From NCBI GenBank assembly GCA_963717145.1, contig OY970325.1:4928001-4992000 (forward strand): a stretch of 64,000 nucleotides of DNA. Reading direction: 5' to 3'. The position numbers were made by a program, and so were the translations under genes. Source of the stretch: an uncultured Armatimonadetes bacterium. GTDB lineage: Bacteria; Armatimonadota; UBA5829; DTJY01. Below, piece by piece: positions 5,191 to 27,034 of the stretch (positions are counted from its first letter, which is position 1; every line of letters begins with the position of its first letter). The notes under the pieces were generated by a model, which saw only the letters and a list, made by a program, of their open reading frames with translations, was not told the origin of the DNA and made no database searches.

Positions 5191-7000
5191 TCAGAGGCTA
5201 CGGAACTGTGCCGTACCAAAGCCAATCTGTGCAGCCTCTTGCACCAACACATCCTCAAGTTTCCCTCTGAAATACGCTCGATTATATGCGTCAATCATCT
5301 GAGAGATCCGAGCTTCCAATGCCCCAGCGAACTCCTTCTGGGCCGGTTGATAAGCGCCCAAATGTGCGACGCTTTCCAGTAAGATATCGACCACAAGGTG
5401 ACCAAGATTGTGCCGCCACCGACCGACAGCCTGGACAAAAGCCAGAAAATGAGCCATCTCATCGTCGGTCGATGAGAAACGAGTTTCCCTCGCATGGGTG
5501 CGCCAATGAGCTAGCATTGCAGGGAACACCTCATCCGCCCAGAAAGACAACCGATTCGTCTGGAGCACTAGTACGTTCCAAGTATCCCGGATGAACGGGT
5601 CGATGATCTCGTACGGACGGCTCGAAGATTCGTCGGCAGAAGCTCATCAGCTGCTCGGGATCATCCATATTCTCTCGAACCTGCCAAGGATCAACACGGG
5701 ATATCAGACCGTCAGTGAGCAACTGTGATTCAATCGCTGTACCAGGAAATACAATTACTTGATTGAACAAATATAAGGGCGAAAAAAAAGGAGAATTCTC
5801 GATGCACATGTCCGTTTCGCTGATGAACTGAACCGTTTCCCGGTATTCTTGAATGGTGGTATATGGATCGACAAGGATCATGGATGTCTCCAAATGAAAC
5901 CCTTGTTTTCGCATGAACTCAATCGCATGGCGATTCTGTGCAACTGTCGTTCCTTTTCGATAGCGATTCAAGGTGCTCTGTGCACCGGATTCAATGCCGA
6001 GGAACACATCCTGCAATCCAGCAGTTCTCAATAGGGTGAATAGTTCCGGGTCGAGACTGATATCGACACGGACTTCTATCCAAAATCTCAGCCTCATTTT
6101 GTTGTCAAGAATGCGATGTGCGAGTTCATACAACCGTTGATGCCCAGAATCCCCGTAGCCGAAAAAGTTTTCATCAATGATCGTCAGATACTCAATACCA
6201 AACTCTCGTACCAAGTACTCAATCTCTTCAAATACCGAATCAACCGAACGACAGCGCCATGCCGTAGGTACAAGGGCTGCACATGCCGGTGCCCCGCAGT
6301 ATGTACACCGACCACGACATCCCCGGCTGGTGAAGATGGAGGCTGTACGGAGGGTGATTCCATCACGCAGTAAGCGCTCCTTGAGCTCTGCAAACGTATC
6401 GCGGGCGGCAAAGGGAAGGCTCGATAGATCCTCAACCACCGGCCCGCACGCGTTGACTACAACACGTGTGCCATCCCGCCAAGCCAGACCAGGTAGGTCT
6501 TGCCACTCCTCTCCCCGCTTCAAACGTTCAAGGAGGCGTATCAGGGTGACCTCTCCCTCTCCCCGAACAACCGAGTCGAATTCAGGAATTCCGGCCAGCA
6601 GATACTCATATGTCATTGTCGCAAACGGACCGCCTATGCTGATATGCCCGTGGTAGCCACGTTGCCTCAGAGCACGTGCAATCCGACACGCCTCAACCGT
6701 ATGCAGGTCATATAGCAGGCTGATACCGACAAGCGGTGGGTTGATGGCCAGCACCCGATCACAAACATCATCGATATCCAGATCATGCAGATGGGCGCTC
6801 AATATCTGAACAGTGTAGCCGTATGAACGCGCATAGGAAGCCAGACAGCATAAACCGAGATTATCCTTCAGGAACTTGGCGTAGACTGCATTCATTGGTC
6901 CGCCCGTGAAAACTTCGACATCATTTCTGACATTCTTCTCTCGAAACAATGTCTTATCGCGAAGCGATGTCTCCTTTGGGGCGATTAATATGACATCCAT
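5191..7000 (-). CDS. Cobalamin-dependent (class B) radical SAM protein, copy A; contains a +1 frameshift at about 5625
   Basis: B12-binding N-terminus, SRGCRGRCTYC motif; removing one A at 5625-5626 (ctcgaagatt vs ctcgagatt in the paralog) joins ORFs 5531..7000 and 5191..5568 into a full-length homolog of copy B. Confidence 0.85.
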
Positions 7001-10566: not shown

Positions 10567-11817
10567 TCACCTCACCAACTCCTGAAGATGCAGGCGGATT
10601 TTTGTGATTGCTCCGGCGATCTCTTCCATATCATGGCGATCACCGAGCAACAGGTTCTGTGGCAGCCAGACGGCTTCACGACAGATCTGCTCAGCGACGT
10701 GACAGCGGTCGGCATACGCGGAAGAAACATCCTCACTGAACCCAAACAGCGGATTCCTATAGATTGGATGTGAATAACCCTCGGTGCATGGAATGCCTTC
10801 TGCATTCAGCGCCACGACGAACCGCCTACGACTGAGCCCCGGCCAGGCATCCCGCTGGAAACGGAAGGCAAACAGGTGAAAGATCGGATTTGTGGCACGG
10901 GGATCGAGGTGTTTGACCAGGATTCCCTCCATGCCGCTCAGAAACTCCGTCAGGTACGCCGCATTCGCCGCACGGGTTGCACGTTGGACGTCAAAGCGGC
11001 GCAGCTGTGCGCAAGCCACCGCAGCTTGCAACTCTGTTAACCGGTAGTTCCACCCCAACTCCGAATGCGTATACCAGGGGCTGCCGAAAGCTCTTCCCAG
11101 GGTGTGCAGTGCATAGAGTTTGTGGTAATGATCTTCGCTGTTGGTAACAACGACTCCACCTTCGCCACATGTGAGATTCTTCGACCCTTGCAGGCTAAAG
11201 CATCCGATGTCACCCATTGAGCCGATCGGACGTCCGCACCAACTCGCGTTCACGGCTTGTGCTGCATCTTCTATCACGGATAGTCCGTGCCGTTCGGCCA
11301 AGGTGCACAGGGTATCCATCTCGCATGGCTGCCCTGCAAAATGCACCGCGATGATGGCGCGTGTCTTATCGGTAAGGTGGTCTGGGATGTCGTGAACGTT
11401 CAGATTCCATGTATCGGGACATATGTCGACAAACACCGGAACAGCGCCCGCGTGGAGAATGCATGTAGCGCTAGAAATGAAGGAATACGGCGACACAACG
11501 ACTTCGTCGCCTCGCTGGATATCCACACAACTGACCGCCATGTCTAATGCTGCAGTGCCGCTAGCGACAGCCAACGCGTAGCGGGCGGCGTGCCGCTGGG
11601 CAAAGGCCTGCTCCAGCCGCTCAAGATAGCCATCATTGTTCCCTTGTGGAGATTGCCTTGCCAAACTCACCCGTGACCAACGACCAAGACGCAGGGCATC
11701 CAACATTGCTGACTCATCACTCGCATCCCATTGCGGCCAGGCTGGGAACGGTTTGGACTTTACCTTCTGTCCTCCACATATCGCTAGCTTGCACGTATCT
11801 CGCTCAAGATAGGGCAT
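10567..11817 (-). CDS. DegT/DnrJ/EryC1/StrS PLP-dependent aminotransferase (AHBA-synthase-related)
   Basis: SGTAAL, IEDAAQA, FSLQGSKNLTCGEGG, GWNYRLTELQAA. Confidence 0.92.
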   Translation of the reverse strand: MPYLERDTCKLAICGGQKVKSKPFPAWPQWDASDESAMLDALRLGRWSRVSLARQSPQGNNDGYLERLEQAFAQRHAARYALAVASGTAALDMAVSCVDIQRGDEVVVSPYSFISSATCILHAGAVPVFVDICPDTWNLNVHDIPDHLTDKTRAIIAVHFAGQPCEMDTLCTLAERHGLSVIEDAAQAVNASWCGRPIGSMGDIGCFSLQGSKNLTCGEGGVVVTNSEDHYHKLYALHTLGRAFGSPWYTHSELGWNYRLTELQAAVACAQLRRFDVQRATRAANAAYLTEFLSGMEGILVKHLDPRATNPIFHLFAFRFQRDAWPGLSRRRFVVALNAEGIPCTEGYSHPIYRNPLFGFSEDVSSAYADRCHVAEQICREAVWLPQNLLLGDRHDMEEIAGAITKIRLHLQELVR

Positions 11818-12018: not shown

Positions 12019-12435
12019 CTAGGGTCCTGCTACCATATCATCGCCGTATTGTTCATCTTGCTGCGGAAAGCCTCGCAGAACTCCATGTATCTCCATGCGT
12101 TCAGGCTGAAATGCCTGTCGAAACACGGGAATAGCCTCGTGCGGAACGCCTTCTCCGCAGGCGAACACATCTAGGGCTGCATAGCCCTTCTCCGGCCACG
12201 AATGGAAACTGATATGTGATTCACAGAGCAAGACCACAGCCGTCACGCCGGCTGTACATGGAAACGTGTGTACTCTGGTATCTATCACCGTAGTACGACA
12301 AGCCGAAGCCGCAGCCAGCAACGTGTCTCTCACAAACTCGGGATCATCCAACCGAGTCGCTCCCCAGATATCAATCGCGAGATGAACACCAAGGACTTGG
12401 TAGTCATCCGGGCTTGGGCCCTGTCGAGTTATCAT
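12019..12435 (-). CDS. speD: S-adenosylmethionine decarboxylase proenzyme
   Basis: GVHLAID..., GVTAVVLLCESHISFHSWPEKGYAALDVFACG containing the pyruvoyl ESH cleavage site; start inferred at ATG 12435. Confidence 0.88.
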   Translation of the reverse strand: MITRQGPSPDDYQVLGVHLAIDIWGATRLDDPEFVRDTLLAAASACRTTVIDTRVHTFPCTAGVTAVVLLCESHISFHSWPEKGYAALDVFACGEGVPHEAIPVFRQAFQPERMEIHGVLRGFPQQDEQYGDDMVAGP

Positions 12436-12806
12436 AGATCCAAGCACAGCACATTTCCCTCTCAGCAGAAGTTGTGCATCGACTCTATAGCATTGCCGCC
12501 ACGTATCGACCCATACTGGCGAACCGACACCCCTTACCGTCCTGCTCACCTTGGCTATCGTGCACCGAAGCAGAAGCAGCACTCCCGACGGCCCAACGAT
12601 GGCATCACAACATGGACATGAAGCCTGTAATGTGCGTAATGGATATCGCTGCGTTTGGAAGCATCATGCTCTCATCTTGCTGTTGGCGATCCAGCAATGA
12701 TATGGGCGCAGTTCTGACCACGTTATCGCTCAACTCGAATCGACCTTGCGTTAGGTTGAAAGGAGAGTGCTTCCTGCTCATCTTCAATGCACTGTACATC
12801 CTAGTC

Positions 12807-12835
12807 AGTATATCATTCAGTCACCCGGAAGTCAA
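12807..12835 (-). promoter_or_regulatory. sigma70-type promoter TTGACT-N17-TATACT for the leftward speD to btrH-like operon
   Basis: On the + strand, agtcaa at 12830-12835 and agtata at 12807-12812. Confidence 0.75.
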
Positions 12836-12841
12836 CATGAC

Positions 12842-14308
12842 GTAACAGTTCACGCTTGGGGATAACGAGTTTGATCAGGCAGGGAAGAGGACAGACTTGC
12901 CTGCGAGCAGTTGCCTGCATGATTCGAGCATGTCCAGACCCCTGACGTGCCATGTGCCAAACAGACTCATGAGCGTCATCTTTGTCTCGGAACCCTTCGC
13001 GCTTCGTGTGCCTCCGCATACCTTGCGGGCGATCACACACGGCCTCAGCGCTCGTTCTGCGCCATTGTTGTCCGACGGTACTTCCGGGTACTCTACGAAC
13101 ATGAACAACTCGTGCAAGCGATCTATGAATCTCTTTGCCAGCGTCTGCTGTGGAGCATCTGAGCCGACATACGGACCTGAGAGCGCCTCTACCTCTTCCT
13201 CGAAGAGTACTCGCTTCCACTTGCGAACCTCCGCCTTCTTGCTCCGGAACTCCTTTGCCCGATCGTAAACACCCTTCACCGCATCCGCCCATGCGATGAC
13301 GCCCGTGTCGTCCGCGTTCCTCTCCTTCAGTTTGTGCAGATCCCTGGCCAGATGTGCCCAGCATATCTGGCGGTCTGCAACTACCGGGTTGTATCCGGCA
13401 TAGCAATCCGTTACCACTACCCCTTCGTAGTCGCCGCCTATCGTTTCCTTCGGGATCTCTCCACTCCGACTCCGCCGGTAGATGAAGTAGCGCACGTTCT
13501 TAGTGGAGAAGGTCCAGATGTATCCGTTCAGCCCATCCTCTCTCCAGCCCGTCTCGTCTGCGTTTATGTATGGGCTTCCACGTACAAGCGAGAGTAGCCG
13601 CTCTTTCTCTTTTTTGCCACAGTCTGCCACCGTGTGCAATATCTCGCTTATCTCTCCCACAGAGAGCTGAAGACCATACAGAGCCTTCAGCAATCCCTGT
13701 ATCGTCCGCTTTGTCATGCGACCTACCGTCGAAAGATACGATATCAGGCTCATCAGGTTCACGCCTACCCGATGCTTGCCTACAACCTGGCCGGAAAGGT
13801 CAACCTTCGGCACATGACTCTTGCCACAGTATCCGCATCTTCTGGCGATGAACCTGTGCTCGACTACGTCCACAGGCACGATGGGGATGTCGATGACTTG
13901 GCGGAGTCTCTTTACCGTGCCCCCTGTGAGCGCTCGGCCGCAGTCCGGACACTTCGAGTGCGCGTGCTCGACTACACGGGTGGGTGTCTCCCGCCTGCGC
14001 ACGAACGACTTCTTGCGCTTCTTTCGTTCAGCTGCCCGGCGCTCTTTGCGGTTCGGCTTCACCCAGTCAGGCACGGATGGGGAACTGCCATCACCGCCGG
14101 AAAGCCTGGCGCGAAGGTCTTCGTTCTCCTTCTCCAGGTCGCCGATACGCGCCACGAGTTGGGGAACTAGACCTTCCAACTGGCTGACCCTGGCCTCAAG
14201 CTCCTCGTATGTCGGCTTGGATTGCTCGCTCACACTCCTTGGTTCGAGACGCTCCCAGCAGGTTCCTTCTTCTTACAGACAAAATAATCCCTAAGCCTGA
14301 ACTGTTAC
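12842..14308 (-). mobile_element. Compact IS66-family element, copy 2, with perfect 8-bp TSD
   Basis: IR GTAACAGTTCA / TGAACTGTTAC; TSD aacatgac at 12834-12841 and 14309-14316. Confidence 0.93.
12875..14233 (-). CDS. IS66 family transposase
   Basis: CPDCG, ADETGW, QICWAH, PSDNNGAERALR. Confidence 0.92.
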   Translation of the reverse strand: MSEQSKPTYEELEARVSQLEGLVPQLVARIGDLEKENEDLRARLSGGDGSSPSVPDWVKPNRKERRAAERKKRKKSFVRRRETPTRVVEHAHSKCPDCGRALTGGTVKRLRQVIDIPIVPVDVVEHRFIARRCGYCGKSHVPKVDLSGQVVGKHRVGVNLMSLISYLSTVGRMTKRTIQGLLKALYGLQLSVGEISEILHTVADCGKKEKERLLSLVRGSPYINADETGWREDGLNGYIWTFSTKNVRYFIYRRSRSGEIPKETIGGDYEGVVVTDCYAGYNPVVADRQICWAHLARDLHKLKERNADDTGVIAWADAVKGVYDRAKEFRSKKAEVRKWKRVLFEEEVEALSGPYVGSDAPQQTLAKRFIDRLHELFMFVEYPEVPSDNNGAERALRPCVIARKVCGGTRSAKGSETKMTLMSLFGTWHVRGLDMLESCRQLLAGKSVLFPA

Positions 14309-14315
14309 AACATGA

Positions 14316-15674
14316 CGAATTGCCTCACCAAAGATGTTACCGAAGTGGATTCGTTGCCTCACGAATGAATGTTACTGTAGAACAGAGGCATGGAGAGGAT
14401 GAGCACTTCAACAACAAGAGAGATCATGAGGCGAAGGAGAAAGGAGTATCTAAGGAGTGGGAAATCGGCCAAGAAGGTGATACTGGACGAGCTGGAGGAG
14501 TTGACCGGTTATCACCGGAAGTCGCTGGTAAGGATGTTTCGAGGAGGCGTGAAGAGGAGGAATGCGCCGATCAGGAGACCTCGAGCTTCGAAGTACGAGG
14601 CGATCCTGCCGCTGCTCAAGGTCCTGTGGGCTACAAGCTTCTACGCCTGCGGGAAGCGGCTTGCTCCGTTCTTGCTGGAACTGGTTTCGGTGATGAAGAG
14701 GTTCGGAGAGATCCGGCCAACCGTGAGTGAGGAGTCGCTGCTTGCCTCGATCAGCGCGGCCACGATAGACAGGATGCTGACGCCGGATCGGGAGTCCATG
14801 AGGGTGAAGGGACGTACGACGACCAAGCCTGGGACGCTGCTTCGGAGCAGGATCGCGATAAGGACCTTCGCCCAGTGGGACGAGAACGAGCCTGGATTCT
14901 TTGAGTTCGACCTGGTAGGCCACTGCGGTGGGACAGCGAGAGGAGAGTTCCTGTATACCCTGAACATGACGGACGTGCACTCCGGCTGGATAGCGCTCGG
15001 CGGTATGAAAGGCAGAGGAGAGCGAGGCACCGTCCTGGCGATCAAATCCGCGTCCGCTCAGCTATCATTCAGGGTCAAAGGGATGGACTCAGACAACGAC
15101 AGCGCATTCATCAACTATCATCTGGCACGGTACTGCCGCCGGGAGAACATATTGCCGACCCGCAGCCGGCCGTACAAGAAGAACGATCAGTGTCATGTGG
15201 AGCAGAAGAACTGGACCGTGGTGAGGCAGTTCATCGGCTACCGGCGATTCGAGACTGATGAGCAGTTGGCCATACTCCAGAAGGTCTATCCGCTGATCAT
15301 GGCCTACCACAACTACTTCTCTCCCATGATGAAGCTTGCCGAGAAGGAACGTGATGGGAGCAAGGTGACCAAGCGCTATACGAAAGCGATGACTCCATAC
15401 CAGAGGCTTCTCATGGCCGACGGATGCATGGACGAGGCTACCAAGGGTCAACTGGCGCGAGAGTATGAATCCACAAACCCGGCCGAACTGCTCAGACGGA
15501 TACGAATGCTGCTCAGACAACTGGAGGACATGCCCACCGAGCAGGCCGATCCCAGGGTACGGTGACCCAGGAGCACGCCTGCTTACGTACCCGGACACGT
15601 AAGACCACTTTCGGTAACAATCCAGATGAGGCAATGATCACCGTTTCGGTAACAAGGATTAATGAGGCAACACG
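14316..15674 (+). mobile_element. ISNCY/IS481-like insertion sequence, copy 2 (diverged relative of copy 1)
   Basis: Ends CGAATTGCCTCA... and ...TGAGGCAACACG with doubled subterminal repeats; direct repeat catga(c) at 14311-14316 and 15675-15680. Confidence 0.87.
14390..15565 (+). CDS. Integrase-core (rve) DDE transposase
   Basis: Colinear homolog of 112..1296 (EFDLVGHCG, DSDNDSAFIN, SRPYKKNDQCHVEQKN). Confidence 0.9.
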   Translation: MERMSTSTTREIMRRRRKEYLRSGKSAKKVILDELEELTGYHRKSLVRMFRGGVKRRNAPIRRPRASKYEAILPLLKVLWATSFYACGKRLAPFLLELVSVMKRFGEIRPTVSEESLLASISAATIDRMLTPDRESMRVKGRTTTKPGTLLRSRIAIRTFAQWDENEPGFFEFDLVGHCGGTARGEFLYTLNMTDVHSGWIALGGMKGRGERGTVLAIKSASAQLSFRVKGMDSDNDSAFINYHLARYCRRENILPTRSRPYKKNDQCHVEQKNWTVVRQFIGYRRFETDEQLAILQKVYPLIMAYHNYFSPMMKLAEKERDGSKVTKRYTKAMTPYQRLLMADGCMDEATKGQLAREYESTNPAELLRRIRMLLRQLEDMPTEQADPRVR

Positions 15675-15680
15675 CATGAC

Positions 15681-17156
15681 GTAACAGTTCACGCTTGGGG
15701 ATAACGAGTTTGATCAGGCGGGGAAGAGGACAGACTTGCCTGCGAGCAGTTGCCTGCAGGACTCGAGCATGTCCAGCCCTCGGACGTGCCATGTGCCAAA
15801 CAGACTCATGAGCGTCATCTTTGTCTCGGAACCCTTCGCGCTTCGTGTGCCTCCGCATACCTTGCGGGCGATCACACACGGCCTCAGCGCTCGTTCTGCG
15901 CCATTGTTGTCCGACGGTACTTCCGGGTACTCTACGAACATGAACAACTCATGCAAGCGATCCGTCAATCTCTTTGCCAGCACCTGCTGTGGAACCTCTA
16001 AGCCGACATACGGACCTGAGAGCGTCTCTACCTCTTCCTCGAAGAGCACTCGCTTCCACTTGCGAACCTCCGCCTTCTTGCTCCGGAACTTCTTTGCCTG
16101 ATCGTAAACACCCTTCACCGCATCCGCCCATGATATGACGTCCGGGTTATCGGCGTTCTTCTCCTTCAGTTTGTGCAGTTCCCTGGCCAGATGTGCCCAG
16201 CATATCTGACGGTCTGCAACTACGGGGTTGTATCCGGCGTAGCAATCCGTTACCACCACCCCTTCGTAGTCGCCGCCTATCGTTTCCTTAGGTATCTCTC
16301 CGCTCCGACTCCGCCGGTAGATGAAGTATCGCACGTTCTTAGTGGAGAAGGTCCAGATGTATCCGTTGAGCCCGTCCTCTCTCCAGCCCGTCTCGTCTGC
16401 GTTTATGTATGGACTTCCGCGTACAAGCGATAGAAGTCCCTTCATCTCGCCTCTGCCACAGCCTGCCACCGTGTGCAATATCTCGCTTATCTCTCCCACA
16501 GAGAGATGAAGACGATACAGAGCCTTCAGCAACCCCTGTATCGTTCGCTTTGTCATACGGCCTACTGTCGAAAGATACGATATCAGGCTCATCAGGTTCA
16601 CGCCTACTCGATGCTTGCCTACAACCTGGCTCGACAGGTCAACCTTCGGCACATGCGCCTTGCCACAGTATCCGCATCTTCTGGCGATGAATCTGTGCTC
16701 GACTATGTCCACAGGCACGATCGGTATATCAATAACCTGGCGGACTCTCTTTACCGTGCCCTCCGTGAGTGCCCGACCGCAGTCCGGACACTTCGAGTGC
16801 GCATGCTCGACTACACGGGTGGGGGTCTCCCGCCTGCGAACGAACGACTTCTGGCGCTTCTTTCGTTCGGCTGCCCGGCGCTCTTTGCGGTTCGGCTTGA
16901 CCCAGTCAGGTATGGGGGTGGAACTGCCGCCACCCGAGAGCTTTGCCTTGAGATCCTCCAGTTCCTTGACGAGACGCTGGATCATCTCCCGCTGCTCCAG
17001 GACAATGCCCACCAATTCTTCTCTTGTCAGACCGTCGAACTCTTCCACACAGGCATGTTCCACCCGCCCGGCCAAGGGTCCTTCCTATTGCAAGCCGACA
17101 ATGTCGGAAAAACTCTCACTGCTCTCGCAAAATGATCCACAAGCCTGAACTGTTAC
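15681..17156 (-). mobile_element. Compact IS66-family element, copy 3
   Basis: IR GTAACAGTTCA at 15681 and TGAACTGTTAC ending at 17156; very similar to copy 2 except at the 5' end; right flank cacatggc matches aacatgac at 6 of 8 positions. Confidence 0.9.
15714..17075 (-). CDS. IS66 family transposase
   Basis: Same motifs as 12875..14233. Confidence 0.92.
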   Translation of the reverse strand: MAGRVEHACVEEFDGLTREELVGIVLEQREMIQRLVKELEDLKAKLSGGGSSTPIPDWVKPNRKERRAAERKKRQKSFVRRRETPTRVVEHAHSKCPDCGRALTEGTVKRVRQVIDIPIVPVDIVEHRFIARRCGYCGKAHVPKVDLSSQVVGKHRVGVNLMSLISYLSTVGRMTKRTIQGLLKALYRLHLSVGEISEILHTVAGCGRGEMKGLLSLVRGSPYINADETGWREDGLNGYIWTFSTKNVRYFIYRRSRSGEIPKETIGGDYEGVVVTDCYAGYNPVVADRQICWAHLARELHKLKEKNADNPDVISWADAVKGVYDQAKKFRSKKAEVRKWKRVLFEEEVETLSGPYVGLEVPQQVLAKRLTDRLHELFMFVEYPEVPSDNNGAERALRPCVIARKVCGGTRSAKGSETKMTLMSLFGTWHVRGLDMLESCRQLLAGKSVLFPA

Positions 17157-17189
17157 CACATGGCGAACAGGGCACTTGGCGGCCCACCG

Positions 17190-18001
17190 GAAACAGTTCA
17201 CGATCGTTGATACTGAAGTTGCTCAGGCGGGATTGGCGGAGAGCGGCTGGGAGACGCCGGACAGCATCCGTCGGCATGACTCCATCGCATCCTCGCCCCG
17301 TAGAAGCCAGGTTCCGAACAGACTCATCGGCCCCATCCGGGTCTCAGACCCCTTCGCCGACCGTGTGCCTCCACTGATCTTCCGAGCCGTCACCGCTGGC
17401 CGAATCGCTCGCTCTGCTGCGTTGTTCTCAGAGGGTACTTCCGGATGCTCCACAAAGACGAACAGCTCCGGCAGGAACCTCTCGATCCGCTGAGCCAGTA
17501 TCCGCTGTGGAACGTCCCGCCTCAGGTATGGCCTGGCGAGCCGATACAACTCTTCCTCGAATGCGATCCGCTGCTCGTGCCGAGCCTTCGACTCCTCGTT
17601 CGAATATCTCTTCGCGCGTCTGTAAACGGCCTTGACCTTGCCGACCCAGATCGCAACCGCTCTATCCCCAGTGTTCGCCTCCACAAGGTCTCGCAAGTCT
17701 CGAAGGTAGTGCACCCAGCACCGCTGATGCCGACCCAAGAGCACGTTGTAGCCGCAGTAGAAGTCGCTTACGACTACACCGCCGTAGTCCTCTCCCAGCA
17801 CACCTTTTGCGACCTCTCCGCTCCGACTCTTGTTGCGAACGAAGTAGCGCACGTTTCGCGTCGAGAAGCTCCAGATGTATCCGTTCTTCCCATCTTCTCG
17901 CCAGCCGGTTTCATCCGCGTTCACCGCAGGGCTTCCCCTGACCGCTTGCAGAAGCTTCTCTACCTCGGGCTTGCCCCTGGAGTCCACCTTCTGGAGTATC
18001 A
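17190..18001 (-). pseudogene. 5'-truncated IS66 element, copy 4 (relative of copy 1)
   Basis: Degenerate end GAAACAGTTCACG at 17190; similarity to the copy 1 transposase begins only at ILQKV (about 18001). Confidence 0.85.
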
Positions 18002-18140
18002 GGCAAAAGCTCAGATCATACAGATCGGAAATGTTTTGAGTTCTCTTGAGGGACATCATTTCCAGCGAGGTGTCGGACCTTACCTACGCTTGGCCTTTCC
18101 TGGAATCGTTGAGTGCACCGATCTAGCTACTCTGGATAAC

Positions 18141-19573
18141 GGGTGCATTCGCGTTGAGTGGGTAGCAAGTAAGGAAGGAGTCTCCTGTAATAGTCGGTAA
18201 CGGTTTGTTGAAGGACAAACATTCCGAAAGGAGACTCCCAGAGAATGCTTACACTTTTGCACACAGACTCCCTCCTTCAGGCCGCTCGCGACTTTGCGCG
18301 CAGCTACATCGATTGCACGGACTTAGGGTCAGCCGAGGAGCGTATTCAGATCCTGGCGCGTCAGATTGCCGGCGCAATGATGAGTGAGGTTGCCGCCAAG
18401 ATGAGCGGAAAGCCCACCTACAAGGGTGTTGGGATAGAATGCGAATGCGGCAGACTGGCCAGGTTCAAGGGATACCGGAAACGCTTCATTCGGACTTTGC
18501 ACGGAGACATAGAGGTCGAGAGGTCATACTACCGTTGCGACCATTGCAGGCGGGGCTACATTCCATGGGACCGCGAGCAGGGGCTGTCCGAGAGAGTATG
18601 GACCGCCAGAGTGAAGGAACTCACCGCCTCGATCTGCGCCGCGCTTCCATATGAAGCAGCCGCAAGGCTGATCGAGCGAACCACGGGTATTGCGATCGAA
18701 GAGAGCAGCGAAGAAGAGATAGTCCGGGATGTTGGGGAATGCCTCCGCCGAGAGGAGCAGGAAGCGATCATCTCTGTGGTAGACACAGGTGAAGAGGTCT
18801 CCTGCGAGGCGACGCCACAGAGGCTCTACATTGGCATAGACGCGGCCAAAGCGCACACCGATGGCCAGTGGCATGACATCAAGACCATGGTGGTATACGA
18901 AGGCGTTCCGGCTGCAGGCAAAGACACGGATACCGTCACCAACTCGCGCTACATAGCGGCGCAAGAGACGAGCGACGAGTTCGGGAGACGGGTATACACC
19001 AGAGCACTGCAAGCCGGCTATGACGGGGCAAAAGAGCGTATAGTGATCGCCGACGGCGCAGACTGGATATGGAGAGAGGTCAGGAATCATCTGCCGGAGA
19101 GCATCAAGATCATCGACTACTGGCATGCCTGTGAGCACATATACGGCTTGGCGCGGACACTCTACGGAGAGGGGAATCCCAAAGGGAAGCGCTGGGCAAA
19201 CGAACACTGCCGGAAGCTTAAAGAGAAGGGGCCGGGGAGTCTGCTTAGAGCCATGAAGCGGCGCAGAGCACGAAACGATTCTGAGAGGGAAGCGCTTCGG
19301 ATCGAGACAGGCTACTTCAGAAAGTACCGCAAGTACATGAACTACCCGGCATACAGGGCCAAGGGGATGATGATAGGCAGCGGTCCGGTGGAAGCGGCGT
19401 GCAAGGTGATAGTAGGCCAGAGGTTAAAGCAAGCCGGGATGCGATGGACGAAGGACGGCGCAGATGCAGTGCTCGCGGTGAGAACTGCCCTCCTAAGCGG
19501 CGAACTGGCTCGGATCGAGCACGCAGCACGTGCCGCCTGAGCCGTGCTCTACCCACTCTGAGGAATTCCACCC
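18141..19573 (+). mobile_element. ISKra4/ISLre2-type (prokaryotic Mutator-like) insertion sequence
   Basis: Imperfect IR GGGTGCATTCGCGTTGAGTGGGTAG / CTACCCACTCTGAGGAATTCCACCC; no TSD seen. Confidence 0.85.
18245..19540 (+). CDS. ISKra4 family (UPF0236-like) transposase
   Basis: CECG...RSYYRCDHC, IADGADWIW, IDYWHA, IGSGPVEAACK..QRLKQAGMRW. Confidence 0.9.
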   Translation: MLTLLHTDSLLQAARDFARSYIDCTDLGSAEERIQILARQIAGAMMSEVAAKMSGKPTYKGVGIECECGRLARFKGYRKRFIRTLHGDIEVERSYYRCDHCRRGYIPWDREQGLSERVWTARVKELTASICAALPYEAAARLIERTTGIAIEESSEEEIVRDVGECLRREEQEAIISVVDTGEEVSCEATPQRLYIGIDAAKAHTDGQWHDIKTMVVYEGVPAAGKDTDTVTNSRYIAAQETSDEFGRRVYTRALQAGYDGAKERIVIADGADWIWREVRNHLPESIKIIDYWHACEHIYGLARTLYGEGNPKGKRWANEHCRKLKEKGPGSLLRAMKRRRARNDSEREALRIETGYFRKYRKYMNYPAYRAKGMMIGSGPVEAACKVIVGQRLKQAGMRWTKDGADAVLAVRTALLSGELARIEHAARAA

Positions 19574-19589
19574 CTCATCTGACGTGACC

Positions 19590-19619
19590 TTGACAACTGA
19601 TGAATGGATAGGTTACGAT
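19590..19619 (+). promoter_or_regulatory. sigma70-type promoter TTGACA-N18-TACGAT upstream of the GT9 array
   Basis: TTGACA at 19590-19595, TACGAT at 19614-19619. Confidence 0.65.
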
Positions 19620-19779
19620 TCGCAAAGCATGTTTGTACGGCGAAGAAGCCAGCGACAGGCCTGTGGCCACCTAATGCTGTGATCTCTCGCACAGAGGTCG
19701 TCTCGTCTGAATGCTATCTTGCAGGGTTGTCCCCTAGGTCTGTTGGGGTCATCGATGGTAGTATACGAAAGAGGGAGGC

Positions 19780-21063
19780 GTGCTAGTGTACTTTGGGTCA
19801 GCGAGGACGTTGATATGGGCATCTGTGGCCCGCATGATCAGACCACTTGTGAGGCTCCATCCTGCTGTACGACATCATACCGCCGTGAAAAACGGAAAGC
19901 GTATTCTAGTTAAGATACACGGTGGCGCCGGCGTCGGTGATGTTATCATGTGTACACCGAGTCTTAGAGCACTGCGGCATGGGCATCCAAATGCCTATAT
20001 TGCATGCATGGTTAGCAAGGCACATAGTCCAGTTCTCCTGGGATGCCCTTATATAGATGAGATTATCAGCGTTGAGCAGGCGGCAGCCTCGAGGCTAAGG
20101 TATGTCACTCAGTTGGCCAAGTACCTAAGGCTGGTAATCCGGCTGGCAGCTTACCATTTCGATTTCAGCGTCGAATTGAAACAAGGCACACCCCCGATGT
20201 TGAGGCAGATTCCTGTGATGGCAGGTATCGAGCATCGTTATGGCCCCCGGGTTACCGACCCGTGGCATTCCCCTGAGGCCTATTCTGTTCGAGTACCTTT
20301 GCTAACAGATAGCACGCAAGTCGTCAGGTTCATGGAGGTCGCGGTCGCTGCCGGCGGCATACCGGATGGTGAGGAAACTGAATGCTATGTATCTCTCGAA
20401 TGGAGAAAGAGCGTTGCTAACCTCTTGGGACCGGTCGATTCTCGGCCGCTCATCGTTGTTCATCCTGGCAGCAATGACTGCTGTAGACGATGGCCAGAAG
20501 CATCGTTTGCCAAAGTCATCAATGACCTGCAAGCTGACCAGCCGGTCCGCATTCTGCTTATAGGAGTCACAGCAGAGATTGCTGTGATCAATCATATCGC
20601 TGTAGAATGCCGGTGCGCGGTCGAGACTATCGTATCAGTGCTCGATCTGGGTGAGTTGCAGGCGCTGATAGAGCGAGCTGATCTGCTTCTTTGCAACGAC
20701 TCAGGGCCGATGCACATGGCAATAGCTTTGGGCACTCCCGTTGTGGCTGTATTCGGTCCGACGAATCCCGACAAGATTGTAGGACTCAATCCACCAGACT
20801 GGTGCCGTCTTATCCGAGTACCAGCAGATTGCCCTCCGCGGTCAGAATGCCCCGTCTATGCCTGCATGTCGGGGAAGAGACGCCGTCAGGTCTTACCGAT
20901 ATGCAGCACGACAGACGCAGTATGTGTGGATGCCGTCAGTGTACAACCAGTGCTCGAAGCCGCCAGGGGACTCCTGGCATGCAAGCGGAGTTCTACAGAG
21001 CGGTTGTCCCCTAGGTCTGTTGGGGTCATCGATGTTAGTATACGAAAGAAGGAGGCGTGCTAG
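19780..21063 (+). CDS. Glycosyltransferase family 9 (heptosyltransferase-like), copy 1
   Basis: GDVIMCTPSLRAL, HPG...RRWP, ADLLLCNDSGPMHMAIALGTPVVAVFGPT; true start may be the GTG 6 nt further on. Confidence 0.92.
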   Translation: MLVYFGSARTLIWASVARMIRPLVRLHPAVRHHTAVKNGKRILVKIHGGAGVGDVIMCTPSLRALRHGHPNAYIACMVSKAHSPVLLGCPYIDEIISVEQAAASRLRYVTQLAKYLRLVIRLAAYHFDFSVELKQGTPPMLRQIPVMAGIEHRYGPRVTDPWHSPEAYSVRVPLLTDSTQVVRFMEVAVAAGGIPDGEETECYVSLEWRKSVANLLGPVDSRPLIVVHPGSNDCCRRWPEASFAKVINDLQADQPVRILLIGVTAEIAVINHIAVECRCAVETIVSVLDLGELQALIERADLLLCNDSGPMHMAIALGTPVVAVFGPTNPDKIVGLNPPDWCRLIRVPADCPPRSECPVYACMSGKRRRQVLPICSTTDAVCVDAVSVQPVLEAARGLLACKRSSTERLSPRSVGVIDVSIRKKEAC

Positions 21064-22340
21064 TGTACTTTGGGTCAGCGAGGACGTTGATATGGGCATC
21101 TGTGGCCCGCATGATCAGACCACTTGTGAGGCTCCATCCTGCTGTACGACATCATACCGCCGTGAAAAACGGAAAGCGTATTCTAGTTAAGATACACGGT
21201 GTCGCCGGTGCCGGTGATGTTATCATGTGTACACCCAGCCTTAGGGCGCTGCGACGTGGGCATCCAAATGCCTATATTGCATGCATGGTTAGCAAGGCAC
21301 ATAGTCCAGTTCTCCTGGGATGCCCTTATATAGATGAGATTATCAGCGTTGAGCAGGCGGCAGCCTCGAGGCTAAGGTATGTCACTCAGTTGGCCAAGTA
21401 CCTAAGGCTGGTAATCCGGCTGGCAGCTTACCATTTCGATTTCAGCGTCGAATTGACGCAAGGCGCACCCCCCATGCTGAGGCAGATTCCTGTGATGGCA
21501 GGTATCGAGCATCGTTATGGCCCCCGGGTTACCGACCCGTGGCATTCGCCCGAGGCCTATTCTGTTCGAGTACCTTTGCCAACAGATAGCACGCAAGTCG
21601 TCAGGTTCATGGAGATCGCGGTCGCTGCCGGCGGCATACCGGATGGTGAGGAAACTGAATGCTATGTATCTCTCGAATGGAGAAAGAGCGTTGCTAACCT
21701 CTTGGGACCGATCGATTCTCGGCCGCTCATCGTTGTTCATCCTGGCAGCCGGGACTGCTGTAGACGATGGCCAGAAGCATCGTTTGCCAAAGTCATCAAT
21801 GACCTGCAAGCTGACCAGCCGGTCCGCATTCTGCTTATAGGAGTCACAGCAGAGATTGCTGTGATCAATCATATCGCTGCAGAATGCCGGGCGCCGGTCG
21901 AGACTATCGTATCAGTGCTCGATCTGGGTGAGTTGCAGGCGCTGATAGAGCGAGCTGATCTGCTTCTTTGCAACGACTCAGGGCCGATGCACATGGCAAT
22001 AGCTTTGGGCACTCCCGTTGTGGCTGTATTCGGTCCGACGAATCCCGACAAGATTGTAGGACTCAATCCACCAGACTGGTGCCGTCTTATCCGAGTACCA
22101 GCAGATTGCCCTCCGCGGTCAGAATGCCCCGTCTATGCCTGCATGTCGGGGAAGAGACGCCGTCAGGTCTTACCGATATGCAGCACGACAGACGCAGTAT
22201 GTGTGGATGCCGTCAGTGTACAACCAGTGCTCGAAGCCGCCAGGGGACTCCTGGCATGCAAGCGGAGTTCTACAGAGCGGTTGTCCCCTAGGTCTGTTGG
22301 GGTCATCGATGGTAGTATACGAAAGAAGGAGGCGTGCTAG
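21057..22340 (+). CDS. Glycosyltransferase family 9, copy 2
   Basis: As copy 1; start overlaps the previous stop. Confidence 0.92.
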   Translation: MLVYFGSARTLIWASVARMIRPLVRLHPAVRHHTAVKNGKRILVKIHGVAGAGDVIMCTPSLRALRRGHPNAYIACMVSKAHSPVLLGCPYIDEIISVEQAAASRLRYVTQLAKYLRLVIRLAAYHFDFSVELTQGAPPMLRQIPVMAGIEHRYGPRVTDPWHSPEAYSVRVPLPTDSTQVVRFMEIAVAAGGIPDGEETECYVSLEWRKSVANLLGPIDSRPLIVVHPGSRDCCRRWPEASFAKVINDLQADQPVRILLIGVTAEIAVINHIAAECRAPVETIVSVLDLGELQALIERADLLLCNDSGPMHMAIALGTPVVAVFGPTNPDKIVGLNPPDWCRLIRVPADCPPRSECPVYACMSGKRRRQVLPICSTTDAVCVDAVSVQPVLEAARGLLACKRSSTERLSPRSVGVIDGSIRKKEAC

Positions 22341-23803
22341 TGTACTTTGGGTCAGCGAGGACGTTGATATGGGCATCTGTGGCCCGCATGATCAGACCAC
22401 TTGTGAGGCTCCATCCTGCTGTACGACATCATACCGCCGTGAAAAACGGAAAGCGTATTCTAGTTAAGATACACGGTGGCGCCGGTGCCGGTGATGTTAT
22501 CATGTGTACACCCAGCCTTAGGGCGCTGCGACGTGGGCATCCAAATGCCTATATTGCATGCATGGTTAGCAAGGCACATAGTCCAGTTCTCCTGGGATGC
22601 CCTTATATAGATGAGATTATCAGCGTTGAGCAGGCGGCAGCCTCGAGGCTAAGGTATGTCACTCAGTTGGCCAAGTACCTAAGGCTGGTAATCCGGCTGG
22701 CAGCTTACCATTTCGATTTCAGCGTCGAATTGTCACATGGCGTACCCCCCATGCTGAGGCAGATTCCTGTGATGGCAGGTATCGAGCATCGTTATGGCCC
22801 CCGGGTTACCAACCAATACCATTCTCCTGAGGCCTATTCTGTTCGAGTACCTTTGCTAACAGATAGCACGCAAGTCGTCAGGTTCATGGAGGTCGCGGTC
22901 GCTGCCGGCGGCATACCGGATGGTGAGGAAACTGAATGCTATGTATCTCTCGAATGGAGAAAGAGCGTTGCTAACCTCTTGGGACCGGTCGATTCTCGGC
23001 CGCTCATCGTTGTTCATCCTGGCAGCAATGACTGCTGTAGACGATGGCCAGAAGCATCGTTTGCCAAAGTCATCAATGACCTGCAAGCTGACCAGCCGAT
23101 CCGCATTCTGCTTATAGGGGTCACAGCAGAGATTGCTGTGATCAATCATATCGCTGCAGAATGCCGGGCGCAGGTCGAGACTATCGTATCAGTGCTCGAT
23201 CTGGGTGAGTTGCAGGCGCTGATAGAGCGAGCTGATCTGCTTCTTTGCAACGACTCAGGGCCGATGCACATGGCAATAGCTTTAGGCACTCCCGTTGTGG
23301 CTGTATTCGGTCTGACGAATCCCGACAAGATTGTAGGACTCAATCCACCAGACTGGTGCCGTCTTATCCGAGTACCAGCAGATTGCCCTCCGCGGTCAGA
23401 ATGCCCCGTCTATGCCTGCATGTCGGAGAAGAGACGCCGTCAGGTCTTACCGATATGCAGCACGACAGACGCAGTATGTGTGGATGCCGTCAGTGTACAA
23501 CCAGTGCTCGAAGCCGCCAGGGGACTCCTGGCATGTAAGCGGAGTTCTACACCCGTGTACCCCTTGATCAGGTCAGACCGCGCATTCCTTCACGATTTCG
23601 GAGTCAGCGACAGTTCTTGCCTCGCTAACATCAACGCCGATTCTGCCGCTAAGAGCCAAGCATCCACTTCGAGTATCCTCCGCTCATGCAGACAGCATCA
23701 TCTTAACCAGGAACAGATCGCCATCGGGATGGCTGTGAGCTCTTCGGGGGTTCGCTCCGCGTGTGAGCCGCTCTGGACCGGCTGGCGCATTACTCCCTGG
23801 TGA
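22334..23803 (+). CDS. Glycosyltransferase family 9, copy 3 (different C-terminal tail)
   Basis: As copy 1 up to CKRSST, then reads into unique sequence. Confidence 0.88.
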   Translation: MLVYFGSARTLIWASVARMIRPLVRLHPAVRHHTAVKNGKRILVKIHGGAGAGDVIMCTPSLRALRRGHPNAYIACMVSKAHSPVLLGCPYIDEIISVEQAAASRLRYVTQLAKYLRLVIRLAAYHFDFSVELSHGVPPMLRQIPVMAGIEHRYGPRVTNQYHSPEAYSVRVPLLTDSTQVVRFMEVAVAAGGIPDGEETECYVSLEWRKSVANLLGPVDSRPLIVVHPGSNDCCRRWPEASFAKVINDLQADQPIRILLIGVTAEIAVINHIAAECRAQVETIVSVLDLGELQALIERADLLLCNDSGPMHMAIALGTPVVAVFGLTNPDKIVGLNPPDWCRLIRVPADCPPRSECPVYACMSEKRRRQVLPICSTTDAVCVDAVSVQPVLEAARGLLACKRSSTPVYPLIRSDRAFLHDFGVSDSSCLANINADSAAKSQASTSSILRSCRQHHLNQEQIAIGMAVSSSGVRSACEPLWTGWRITPW

Positions 23804-24001
23804 GCAGGTCGCCAGGGAAAGGTACCGCCGGAAAGAGCGGTGAACGGAGCACGAAAAGCGGAGACAAGACCAGAGATCACATGAGACTGAATTGGTTTCG
23901 AAGAAGGCACGTTCGCATGTTCTCAGCCGGCGTGGGCTACTTGAGTACCGCCCGATGCTGCCCAGGAAGACCTGTCTCGCAAAAGTACGATATGTCGCCA
24001 C

Positions 24002-24031
24002 TTGACGGATGATTTGCCTCTGCAGTAAGAT
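24002..24031 (+). promoter_or_regulatory. Possible sigma70 promoter TTGACG-N18-TAAGAT
   Basis: About 80 bp upstream of the FkbM gene. Confidence 0.45.
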
Positions 24032-24109
24032 AGATCATATTACTGCTGGAAGAGCTAAGCGGTTTGGGTTCTCGAATGGTTTCGCACTATGAGCGCATGA
24101 GATGATTTC

Positions 24110-25030
24110 ATGAGGTTGCCAGGTCTCCATATTGTACAACAGTTTGCTTGCATCCTAGGCTACGTGTTTGCGGGTGTCTATGACAGAGTTCGCATAGTGG
24201 CTTACTGGGTGCGCGGCCGGAGGAATGGGATCGGTGCGATGGAACTGATCGGGAGGGTGGTCGCTAGGTCGGCCAAGCACAGAGCCAAACGCATAGCCAA
24301 GCGCAGGATACGGAGGCTAGGTGTTACCAGCGGGACGCGGGTAGGCGAATTGTATCACGTCGTGCATCTGCACGAGACAGAACGCCCGCTCTACTGGCCT
24401 TGTGAGCTTGGGCTGGACTGTCTGTATATGACTGTGAACGAGTGTTGTTGCCGGGATCACTGGCACTACTATGAGACTTCTGAGACGCGAGTACATCCGG
24501 AAGACGTCGTGTTGGACTGTGGTGCCGCAGAAGGGCTTTTCAGTCTGCAAGTGCAGCCCAGATGTAAGAGAGTCTTCTGCGTAGAGCCTCTGCCCATGTT
24601 CGTGCGGTCTCTACAGATGACGTTCGATTCTTGTCGCAATGTGACCATCGTACCGGTGGCATTGTCGGACGTGGAGGAAGAGGCACGCCTTTATCAGAAC
24701 GGAGCGGCCTCGTGCATCACGGCATGTTCGCGGGAAGGTTCATTCGACATTCCGATCAAAGTGACGACCATCGATTCGCTGTTCGGAAACACACCGGTCA
24801 CATACATAAAGGCGGATGTAGAAGGCTCCGAGTTGCAGTTGCTAAGAGGAGCAGAACAGACAATCCGGAGGTGGCGCCCCAAGATCGCAATAGCAGCATA
24901 CCATAGCAGTGCGGATGCAGAGCTGCTTTCCAAGTTCCTCACGGAGCTCAATCTGGGTTACAAAGTCCTGCTGAGGGGGATATGCCCGGAAGCGGGAAAA
25001 CCGATAATGCTTCATGCATGGGTCGACTGA
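24110..25030 (+). CDS. FkbM family SAM-dependent methyltransferase
   Basis: VLDCGAAEGLFS, VEP, VALSD, YIKADVEGSELQLLRGA, KIAIAAYH. Confidence 0.88.
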   Translation: MRLPGLHIVQQFACILGYVFAGVYDRVRIVAYWVRGRRNGIGAMELIGRVVARSAKHRAKRIAKRRIRRLGVTSGTRVGELYHVVHLHETERPLYWPCELGLDCLYMTVNECCCRDHWHYYETSETRVHPEDVVLDCGAAEGLFSLQVQPRCKRVFCVEPLPMFVRSLQMTFDSCRNVTIVPVALSDVEEEARLYQNGAASCITACSREGSFDIPIKVTTIDSLFGNTPVTYIKADVEGSELQLLRGAEQTIRRWRPKIAIAAYHSSADAELLSKFLTELNLGYKVLLRGICPEAGKPIMLHAWVD

Positions 25031-25112
25031 CAGTCTGTCCTGTGACTGAGCGCTAATGCGCCACCCGTCGGCAGAGAACCCGATATCGATCCGCTGCAGG
25101 TGCCAACCCGAG

Positions 25113-25713
25113 GTAAGAGCTCACGATCATTGATGATCCGGGCAGGTGCACTGGAGCGGGCTGTCGAATGGTAGGTTGTGAACGGTCTCGGCAGCCTATC
25201 AGGAGAAGAACTGTCGATCTAGTCTAGGAGCAGCATCAGGCTGTCCTGGAGTTGCGTGAAGCCGTGGACACCCTTGCGGAGAGCGTGGGGATGCTCGAGA
25301 AGGAGAAGGACGATCTGTCGTCCAAGCCCAGCGGCTGCAGCAGGACGATTCCTGCCTGGGCAAAGCCGAACCCGGCCCGAGCGCGAGAAGAAGGATCGCA
25401 ATAAGCGGTAGAAGTTGTTTCTGCGCCTGATGGAGACTCCGGCTGAGACACCTGTGTTGGTCAAATGCCCGAAGCTCCCTCTGAGAGCGAGACTGCAGGG
25501 CGAGCGATCTGGTCTGCGGTAACGGCAAGGGAGGTAAGTGGAGGGACACGATCGGCGAAGGGGTCTGGGGCCTGGATGAGGCTCATGGGTTTGTTTGGGA
25601 CATGGCTTCTATGAGAGGCCAAGAGCCAGTGTAGTCATGCTGCAGGATGCTTTCCGGCGCTCTCTACCCGTCCTGTCTGACCAGCTTCTCCATCAAGCAT
25701 CGTGAACTGTTTA
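25113..25713 (+). mobile_element. Internally deleted, decayed IS66 derivative (about 600 bp, both ends retained)
   Basis: Left end gtaagagctcacgatcattgat and following sequence match the 5' end of IS66 copy 1; right end catcgtgaactgttta matches its 3' end. Confidence 0.78.
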
Positions 25714-25719
25714 GAGATA

Positions 25720-25810
25720 TTGACAATTCTGGGAAAGCGGCATAGAATGGGAGCAAGTCACCGGCCACTTTCCACTACGGCTGGGACAAGCTCAGCCAAG
25801 ATAGCCGATG
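25720..25810 (+). promoter_or_regulatory. sigma70 promoter TTGACA-N17-TAGAAT plus conserved leader (cassette copy 1)
   Basis: TTGACA at 25720, TAGAAT at 25743; closely similar to the reverse complement of 55660-55749. Confidence 0.8.
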
Positions 25811-25981: not shown

Positions 25982-27034
25982 ATGAAGGAACCGAATCGTC
26001 TGCGGATCTGGCTGTCAGTCCTGTTGTCGGGGAGCTTGGTGGTCACAGGATTGTTCCTGTTCTGCCCACCTAGTTTATTCCATTCACGGCATCTTGGCCA
26101 TAGCTATCTGATGGAGCAGCCTCGGTATTTGACCGCAGTGGCCGGTAAGTCTGGCAGACTTGCAGTGAGCGTTCAAACTGGCGGCAAGGTGCGTATATAT
26201 GTGGAGCAGGGGCATGCCAAGCTCATTCCTGTAACATCTGGCAACTTAGATGCAGACCCTGCTTGGGACCCGGCGGGCACGCGTATTGCATACGTATCAT
26301 TAGGCCGGCACGGCAAACTGGCACTCCGGGTGCTCAGCATGACAGACGGCACAGACTCCGTACTCCTGGAACAACCCCTGATATCGCAGCCGTGCTGGTC
26401 GCACGATGGTATGACTATCCTCTTCTTGAGAAGCCGGCCGGATGTGGCAGGCCAATCGACCATATGTGCAGTTGATCTTGAGACAAAACGGACAATCTCT
26501 CTCGCAGAGACAACCTATAACAGGCCTCAGGCATGGGATGTGCTGGGAGAAGACAGGATAGCCTATACGTACAATGATGCGGTGTGGATAAGGCCTATCC
26601 GGAAACCTGCAGAGCGATTGCCGATCACCTTCACCACCCCGTGCATGGTTTCAGCAGCCCCAAATAATAGGCTGATGTTTGTCTGCGAGTCCATAACAGC
26701 CAACGATAAGCGCGCCATATTGGTTGATCTGCAACCACGGCGATCGAAGCAGCTCTATGAAGGTTACATTCGACATGCACTCTGGTCCCCCTCGGGCAGA
26801 ATATTGGCAATCGCCATCAAGTATGAGACCCTGCTGTTCAGGGCCAATAAGACGGCCACCACCACAGATGAGTGGCAACTGGCTTCCACGCTCAAGGGAA
26901 TCGCTGTATGTTGGCGTTCCGACTCGAAGCTCGTGTTGATCCGGCCTACCAAAGGAAGTCCGCACTTCTTGGAGGAAGAGGATCTGCAGTCGCAAGGTAT
27001 CACTAGCTTTGCACCATATACGGCTAAGCCTTAA
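25982..27034 (+). CDS. Membrane-anchored TolB-like (PD40/WD40) beta-propeller protein
   Basis: N-terminal TM; DPAWDPAGTRIAY, PCWSHDG and WSPSGR repeats. Confidence 0.7.
   Translation: MKEPNRLRIWLSVLLSGSLVVTGLFLFCPPSLFHSRHLGHSYLMEQPRYLTAVAGKSGRLAVSVQTGGKVRIYVEQGHAKLIPVTSGNLDADPAWDPAGTRIAYVSLGRHGKLALRVLSMTDGTDSVLLEQPLISQPCWSHDGMTILFLRSRPDVAGQSTICAVDLETKRTISLAETTYNRPQAWDVLGEDRIAYTYNDAVWIRPIRKPAERLPITFTTPCMVSAAPNNRLMFVCESITANDKRAILVDLQPRRSKQLYEGYIRHALWSPSGRILAIAIKYETLLFRANKTATTTDEWQLASTLKGIAVCWRSDSKLVLIRPTKGSPHFLEEEDLQSQGITSFAPYTAKP

Follow-up and report, generated by a model that had tools for sequence, protein, structure and literature searches.

The closest described counterparts of the elements analysed here are TnGBS, the ISLre2 family and the ISKra4 group, which were reported to insert in one orientation 15-17 bp upstream of the -35 box of sigma-A promoters, with a peak at 16 bp from the right inverted repeat (IRR) (Guerillot et al. 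2014, PMC3942029). That paper calls this promoter-upstream specificity unique and atypical and ties it to a signature motif of Mutator-like transposases, situated between their domains N1 and N2; the term IS66 has zero occurrences in it. A second point of reference is the ISBst12 group (ISBst12, ISDge4), whose members, according to the covered part of PMC12898284, encode one DDE transposase of ~450 amino acids (aa), lack tnpA and tnpB, start with GTAA repeats and generate 8-bp target duplications; the covered part of PMC8024623 just lists ISBst12 copies. The subject of the present analysis is a set of single-gene IS66 insertion sequences (ISs) in a stretch of 64,000 nt from an uncultured Armatimonadetes bacterium (assembly GCA_963717145.1, contig OY970325.1, positions 4,928,001-4,992,000), hereafter the window, and in the genome as a whole, which is a single contig of 5,366,867 bp with 60.6% G+C. 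An initial annotation of the window had claimed that compact IS66 elements sit at a fixed distance and in a fixed orientation upstream of -35 boxes, and had attributed this either to promoter-directed targeting or to selective retention. All promoters mentioned below are -35/-10 motif calls made from the sequence alone.

The results argue for element-directed insertion at the upstream edge of promoters, in a single orientation and at a subfamily-specific offset, a reading to which we assign a probability of roughly 0.85. It is carried by four observations: the geometry of the sites, the orientation of the elements, the independence of the insertion events and the restriction of the pattern to one clade.

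Insertion geometry across the genome

Three types of element are distinguished, the tips given being those of the left inverted repeat (IRL) and the IRR:

c1 type: ~1.5 kb, 88-100% identity to copy 1 of the window, IRL tip GTAAGAG, IRR tip mostly GAAAGAG
c2 type: 1467 bp, about 99-100% identity, IRL tip GTAACAG, IRR tip GTAACAG
c3 type: 1476 bp, 92.6% identity to c2 over its 3' 1254 bp, IRL tip GTAACAG, IRR tip GTAACAG

BLAST searches with the window copies yielded 42 IS66-like loci, 39 of which carry the IRR end motif. A 128-bp fragment, one half of a decayed derivative and the copy at genome position 4913885 were dropped, having no scorable IRR. Six inner members of tandems or pile-ups were merged with the neighbour with which they have the site in common, leaving 33 independent sites (16 c1-like, 17 c2/c3).

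At the c1-like sites, TTG occupies flank positions 16-18 beyond the IRR in 12 of 16 cases (background 0.0109, P 4.7e-21), and TTGAC is found at the same offset in 10 of 16 (background 0.00077, P 6e-28). The flank profile begins with 15 unconserved bases, conservation being confined to positions 16-20, and the layout beyond the IRR consists of the 8-bp duplication, 7 bp and then TTGAC. At the c2/c3 sites, a -35-like hexamer starts at flank positions 2-10, most commonly at 8-9, and the 8-bp duplication either adjoins the -35 box or extends a few bases into it. A -10 box with at least five of six matches starts at positions 28-33 in 12 of these 17 sites, compared to 352 of 40,000 random positions that are intergenic on a crude gene map (P ~1e-21). 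The fixed distance claimed initially thus holds for the c1 type, for which it is exactly 15 bp, but not for the c2/c3 type, in which the start of the -35 box varies. When a promoter-like -35/-10 motif was required jointly, with the -35 box at flank position 1-20, the following counts were obtained:

IRR flanks, motif pointing away from the IS: 22/33
random crude-intergenic positions, motif present: 463/40000 (1.2%)
random genome positions, motif present: 174/40000
IRL flanks, motif present: 1/31
IRR flanks, motif pointing towards the IS: 0/33

This genome-wide mapping against random intergenic sites favours targeting over selective retention, the two options between which the initial annotation had not chosen.

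The c1 type resembles TnGBS and the ISLre2 and ISKra4 elements in its orientation, with the IRR towards the promoter, in the combination of unequal inverted repeats with a fixed orientation, in the intact core promoter and in its offset, the 15 bp seen at 12 of the 16 sites being close to the published peak of 16 bp and within the published range of 15-17 bp. The c2/c3 type has the same orientation, whereas its shorter and looser offset is not described for those families. In contrast to those families, the transposase here belongs to the IS66 family by Pfam and is not Mutator-like (p-MULT 3 or 4); the elements are therefore not members of that class. Like the ISBst12 group, they have a single transposase, GTAA ends and 8-bp duplications; however, they insert almost exclusively at one offset and in one orientation relative to promoters, and no target preference was found described for that group.

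The sites represent separate events. The flanks beyond the IRR all differ in sequence from site to site. At three loci (2209022/2210497, 2546269/2547744 and 2994920/2996426), the same octamer is present three times around two head-to-tail copies, which means that the regenerated target was struck again at the identical base. At genome position 3744009/3745490, a single promoter has been used by both a c1-type and a c2-type element, each keeping the offset of its type. Two further dimers (191758/193233 and 4725401/4726876) keep the inner 8-bp spacer of the pair at 2546269/2547744 and have outer duplications of their own at other promoters; thus, a tandem dimer appears to have transposed as a unit. 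Perfect duplications, repeated use of an octamer and distinct flanks together rule out local duplication. For the window copies 2 and 3, a local origin, which had been named as a possible refutation of the targeting idea, is excluded by their 92.6% identity over 1254 bp and their different 5' ends; in addition, each has 100%-identical copies elsewhere in the genome.

Family identity and distribution of the trait

The elements belong to the single-ORF (open reading frame) part of the IS66 family, ISBst12-type group, as judged from the predicted DDE domain, the single-ORF organisation and the ends with their duplications. PF03050 (DDE_Tnp_IS66) is found in copies 1, 2 and 3 with E values of 7.6e-40, 3.8e-37 and 3.8e-34, all above the curated cut-off. 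For PF13005 (zf-IS66), copies 2 and 3 reach 23.3 and 26.3 bits, slightly below the cut-off of 27.3, and no match is reported for copy 1; the CxxC...CxxC columns are invariant in the transposase alignments. Each element of 1467-1501 bp contains one ORF (452-468 aa) and has no space for the accessory genes tnpA and tnpB. The element ends read GTAA(C/G)AGTTCA, and 27 of 37 copies are flanked by a perfect 8-bp duplication.

A scan of reference genomes gave 80 loci encoding relatives, to all of which a crude inverted-repeat finder was applied; the 30 relatives that had a recognisable end and an identity of 41% or more were scored. A promoter-like motif follows the IRR in 13 of the 15 close relatives, which show 48-61% identity, come from at least five assemblies and are for the most part Armatimonadota or unclassified; the -35 box lies at 16-17 in ten and at 5-8 in three. 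One further close relative has TTGACA at 16 and no -10 box. The motif is present in only one of the 15 distant relatives (41-45%; Dehalococcoidia, Thermomicrobiales, Ktedonobacterales). In a maximum-likelihood tree of 14 transposases, which left out L037 (garbled frame), the nine promoter-associated enzymes form one clade with a support of 100/100, within which the two offset classes are interspersed. Homing is a heritable property of the element lineage and neither of this host alone nor of IS66 generally. A clade-specific transposase signature was sought in an alignment of 15 sequences and rejected: promoter-homing and other relatives do differ in the basic stretch that precedes the zinc finger, but these differences cannot be separated from the general divergence of the sequences.

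Target sites in the window

The window region is an IS pile-up that contains three complete, one truncated and one decayed IS66 element, two ISNCY elements and one ISLre2 element. The elements and the promoter-like sites are as follows:

6-34, minus strand: promoter-like site TTGACG-N17-TATACT, TTGACG at 29-34, ISNCY end 5 bp away
40-1401, plus strand: ISNCY-type (rve integrase-core) IS copy 1, 5-bp duplication confirmed, nested between IS66 copy 1 and the promoter that this copy targets
1418-2885, minus strand: IS66 copy 1, c1 type, 1468 bp, single 465-aa transposase ORF at 1450-2847, IRR at the low-coordinate end
12807-12835, minus strand: promoter-like site TTGACT-N17-TATACT, TTGACT at 12830-12835, TATACT at 12807-12812
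12842-14308, minus strand: IS66 copy 2, c2 type, 1467 bp, 452-aa transposase, perfect 8-bp duplication
14316-15674, plus strand: ISNCY-type IS copy 2, sole copy of its variant, 5-bp duplication
15681-17156, minus strand: IS66 copy 3, c3 type, 1476 bp, 453-aa transposase, flanking octamers agreeing at 6/8 bases only
17190 to ~18000, minus strand: IS66 copy 4, truncated, c1-like, 85% identity to copy 1 over 809 bp
18141-19573, plus strand: ISLre2-family IS, transposase ORF (Pfam UPF0236) at 18245-19540, IRR 16 bp from TTGACA at 19590-19595
25113-25713, plus strand: decayed c1-like IS66 derivative, internally deleted, both ends recognisable
25720-25748, plus strand: promoter-like site TTGACA-N17-TAGAAT, TTGACA at 25720-25725, TAGAAT at 25743-25748, upstream of the ORF at 25982-27034

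The four cases on which the initial annotation was based are reproduced by these coordinates. Copy 2 lies 6 bp from the minus-strand TTGACT, which is followed after a 17-bp spacer by TATACT, and copy 3 occupies the same position after removal in silico of copy 2 with its 8-bp duplication and of the ISNCY element with its 5-bp duplication, both duplications being exact. The end of the decayed derivative, 25713, is 6 bp from its TTGACA-N17-TAGAAT site, and copy 1 lies 16 bp from TTGACG once ISNCY copy 1 and its 5-bp duplication are removed. This last spacing had been read as an exception of one helical turn; the 16 bp stand, but they are no oddity, the c1 subfamily having an offset of its own that is mostly 15 bp. 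As had been described, the 3' end of the transposase gene, which is the IRR side, faces the promoter-like site in each of these cases. The promoter points away from the element; all three complete copies (1, 2 and 3) have the transposase on the minus strand. A fifth element, the truncated copy 4, had been overlooked.

The site at 12807-12835, upstream of an S-adenosylmethionine (AdoMet)-decarboxylase-like ORF (12019-12582), is the common target of IS66 copies 2 and 3 and of ISNCY copy 2, the left end of which was 5 bp from the -35 box prior to the insertion of IS66 copy 2. The 8-bp duplication of copy 2 contains one base of the ISNCY end; therefore, copy 2 arrived last, and the content of this duplication gives the order of arrival as copy 3, ISNCY, copy 2. 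A long leader (12583-12806) separates the AdoMet-decarboxylase-like ORF from the targeted promoter, and the Pfam match begins at residue 67 of the 187-aa ORF; the true start may lie further downstream, with a leader of more than 225 nt.

IS66 copy 1 is without a matching target duplication. The flanks of the ISLre2-type copies are matched crosswise, the left flank of one corresponding to the right flank of another (window 18100-18140 and 19574-19582 versus the genome near 4910217-4916802), which points to recombination or inversion between copies in the IS-rich zone at 4.91-4.95 Mb. Recombination between ISLre2-type copies may also be the cause of the absent and imperfect duplications at IS66 copies 1 and 3.

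Other features of the window concern its gene content. Positions 19725-23555 hold three tandem units of 1277 bp that are 96-97% identical, each with a family-9 glycosyltransferase (heptosyltransferase-like) ORF, and these ORFs overlap end to start. Two B12-binding radical-SAM paralogues (5531-7000 and 7180-9027, both minus strand) adjoin each other and have 94%-identical segments in common; the pair sits in a sugar-modification cluster together with a DegT-type aminotransferase (10567-11817) and an FkbM methyltransferase (24110-25030).

Other promoter-homing elements in the same genome

The resident ISLre2-family IS served as a positive control for the procedure and has TTG at flank position 17 in 10 of 12 genome copies, as published for the family. 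The rve-type ISNCY elements show a related habit: in most of the 23 genome copies the 5-bp duplication is directly followed by the TTG of a -35 box. Their left end faces the promoter, from which the transposase gene diverges. Some of the target sites are located a short way upstream of tRNA genes, and this speaks for the motifs being real promoters. The genome further contains miniature inverted-repeat transposable elements (MITEs) of ~133 bp (e.g. 4162500-4162632, 3992239-3992372 and 2318429-2318562), in which c1-type IS66 ends surround a palindromic hairpin core of ~70 bp that is itself dispersed in the genome. They occur at 25 loci with mostly decayed ends; 12 have a recognisable end, and five of these 12 have a promoter-like motif at 16-17. 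The MITE pattern is supportive, yet too decayed for the statistics.

Proposed mechanism and points against it

In the mechanism that we propose, the transposition machinery of the single-ORF IS66 elements would choose a site a short distance before the -35 box of promoters of the sigma70 type, always with the IRR on the promoter side; insertion leaves the core promoter intact and regenerates the 8-bp target. The offset would be set by the element: in c1 elements the IRR tip lies 15 bp from the -35 box (8-bp duplication plus 7 bp), and in c2/c3 elements the 8-bp duplication abuts or slightly overlaps it. As the landing pad survives each insertion, it can be hit again, which accounts for the tandem copies and also for the mixed pile-up at 12830-17156. 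We infer that the specificity is a property of the transposase. The orientation likely stems from the unequal IRL and IRR tips, which read GTAAGAG and GAAAGAG in most c1 copies; such a basis has been argued for Mutator-like elements in the covered part of PMC3942029. Selection probably also contributes by removing insertions within genes.

Several observations weigh against promoter targeting by the element or limit its reach. TTG is absent from positions 16-18 in 4 of the 16 c1-like sites, and the exceptions include window copy 1 (TTG at 17), the decayed derivative (at 7) and copy 4 (none), whose IRR faces the IRL of copy 3 and whose flank carries TGCCCT in place of TTG, with no promoter at the usual distance. 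The offset of the c2/c3 elements is not fixed, and 5 of their 17 sites are without a strong -10 box at 28-33. The copy at 4913885 has a degenerate end that abuts an ISLre2-type element and is unscorable. The intergenic control rests on the crude gene map (greedy long ORFs), on which the genome is ~89% coding and only 23 of the 33 sites adjoin a co-directional ORF; some of the sites without such an ORF probably reflect spurious opposite-strand ORFs, others are real. The empty site was looked for by DNA search in 30 related genomes with the 817-base target region of copy 2, but none of them gave a match. All analysed insertions are survivors, so selection against genic insertions also shapes the pattern. 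Finally, phenotypic selection yielded an ISDge4 insertion within a gene, as reported in the covered part of PMC12898284; promoter homing is therefore not universal in the ISBst12 group.

What is recognised at the target

For the c1 type, the preferred interpretation is that -35-like DNA (TTGAC) would be read directly, the protein acting as a ruler of fixed length, whereas for the c2/c3 type recognition of the whole promoter, possibly bound by polymerase, would fit better. Four of 12 c1 TTGAC sites are without any -10 box, which favours direct reading of the -35 box. Two c1 copies with TTG at 16 and no -10 box, one of them among these four sites, lie at or inside the 3' ends of ORFs, and a third c1 copy lies 46 bp behind a convergent 889-aa ORF. 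Genome-wide, the word TTGAC occurs 7244 times in crude coding and 1045 times in intergenic DNA, and 30% of the intergenic occurrences have a -10 box; the 8 of 12 at c1 TTGAC sites exceed this only moderately (P 0.01), and selection could account for the difference.

A 'pseudo-end' explanation, in which the -35 box might be mistaken for an inverted repeat, was also considered for the c1 offset: in tandem dimers, the TTCAC of the inverted repeat (positions 8-12) falls at flank positions 16-20, where c1 elements find TTGAC. However, the same inverted-repeat tips are used with offsets of 5-10 (c2, c3, L005, L008) or of 17 (the L009 group), so that this idea is at most a partial explanation.

Alternative explanations

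The alternative that survives best is a sub-mechanism of targeting which competes with direct DNA reading, namely that the transposase or transpososome would bind the RNA polymerase holoenzyme on the promoter, at sigma-A region 4 or elsewhere, and integrate where the polymerase footprint ends upstream. We regard such tethering as a serious candidate with a less than even chance. It would account for c2/c3 targets in which the -35 hexamers are degenerate (TTGCCC, TGCCCG, TACCCA) and the -10 box is near consensus in 12 of 17, and for the more frequent -10 box at c1 TTGAC sites, although that enrichment is equally attributable to selection. The c1 TTGAC sites without a -10 box speak against it, as do the two c1 copies at or in the 3' ends of ORFs, where a functional promoter is unlikely. 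Three or more unrelated types of transposase in this genome have the habit (IS66, rve-type ISNCY and ISLre2), for which a common host landmark would be an easy explanation. A complex prediction for the c2 transposase (nine-row alignment) and residues 296-377 of RpoD (L082:1495-2628, minus strand) gave a score of 0.00, which is evidence neither way. The yeast elements Ty1 and Ty3 are eukaryotic retroelements with long terminal repeats and a retroviral-type integrase, which target RNA polymerase III promoters and are tethered there by defined transcription factors. The IS66 elements are similar to Ty3 and Ty1 in that they integrate at the upstream edge of an initiation site, a 'safe haven' that spares coding sequence; the tether, however, is hypothetical here. 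A tethering model has been proposed for TnGBS in the covered part of PMC3942029, which names Ty3 as the analogy for promoter targeting.

It is tempting to go one step further and to speculate that one single-ORF IS66 clade, present here and in other Armatimonadota and Chloroflexota, independently evolved promoter homing by docking on the sigma-A holoenzyme or on -35-bound sigma region 4, with a ruler shifted between 15 and ~8 bp. It would be the third unrelated DDE family to use the initiation complex, and the coexisting homers would represent a convergent adaptation to a gene-dense host. This broader scenario is tentative, and we consider it rather unlikely as a whole.

Selection without any targeting, i.e., random insertion followed by retention of just those copies that lie upstream of promoters in a harmless orientation, is very improbable. 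Most random insertions would be harmful in a genome that is ~89% coding, every analysed copy is a survivor, and the -10 enrichment at c1 sites is as expected from selection. However, retention alone cannot yield an offset fixed to a single base in 12 of 16 sites or a single orientation (0/33 motifs pointing inward, 1/31 at the IRL), and it explains neither the different offsets of sister subfamilies on one promoter nor the repeated use of one octamer. Hardly any insertions are found at other neutral places, e.g. between convergent genes or at a greater distance upstream, and related IS66 elements in Chloroflexota genomes are without the pattern (1/15). An artefact, in which the -35/-10 motif belongs to the element or to a hybrid end promoter or the clusters result from tandem duplication, can practically be dismissed: head-to-tail tandem copies with 8-bp spacers are present and two dimers share their inner spacer with a third locus, so some pairs moved together, but the flanks beyond the IRR are all different, the c1 duplication and seven unconserved bases separate the IS tip from the -35 box, window copies 2 and 3 come from different subfamilies, and the moved dimers have their own outer 8-bp duplications beside different promoters.

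Implications

Promoter-directed insertion as a kind of behaviour is known; what is new is its occurrence in the IS66 family, the second, shorter offset and the presence of several homing families in one genome. Literature searches returned no report of promoter targeting by IS66-family elements; an earlier mention is possible, most subscription-journal papers and supplementary tables lying outside the scope of these searches. The two sister subfamilies, which differ only in their offset, form together with the rve-type IS and the ISLre2 element a natural comparison set for the recognition of -35 DNA versus polymerase. The finding also suggests compact transposases that place DNA at predictable, gene-sparing positions. 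Elements of this kind flag promoters in unannotated genomes and account for IS pile-ups and tandem dimers. The same geometry in an unrelated, IS66-family enzyme indicates that promoter homing is a convergent trait and probably a common one.

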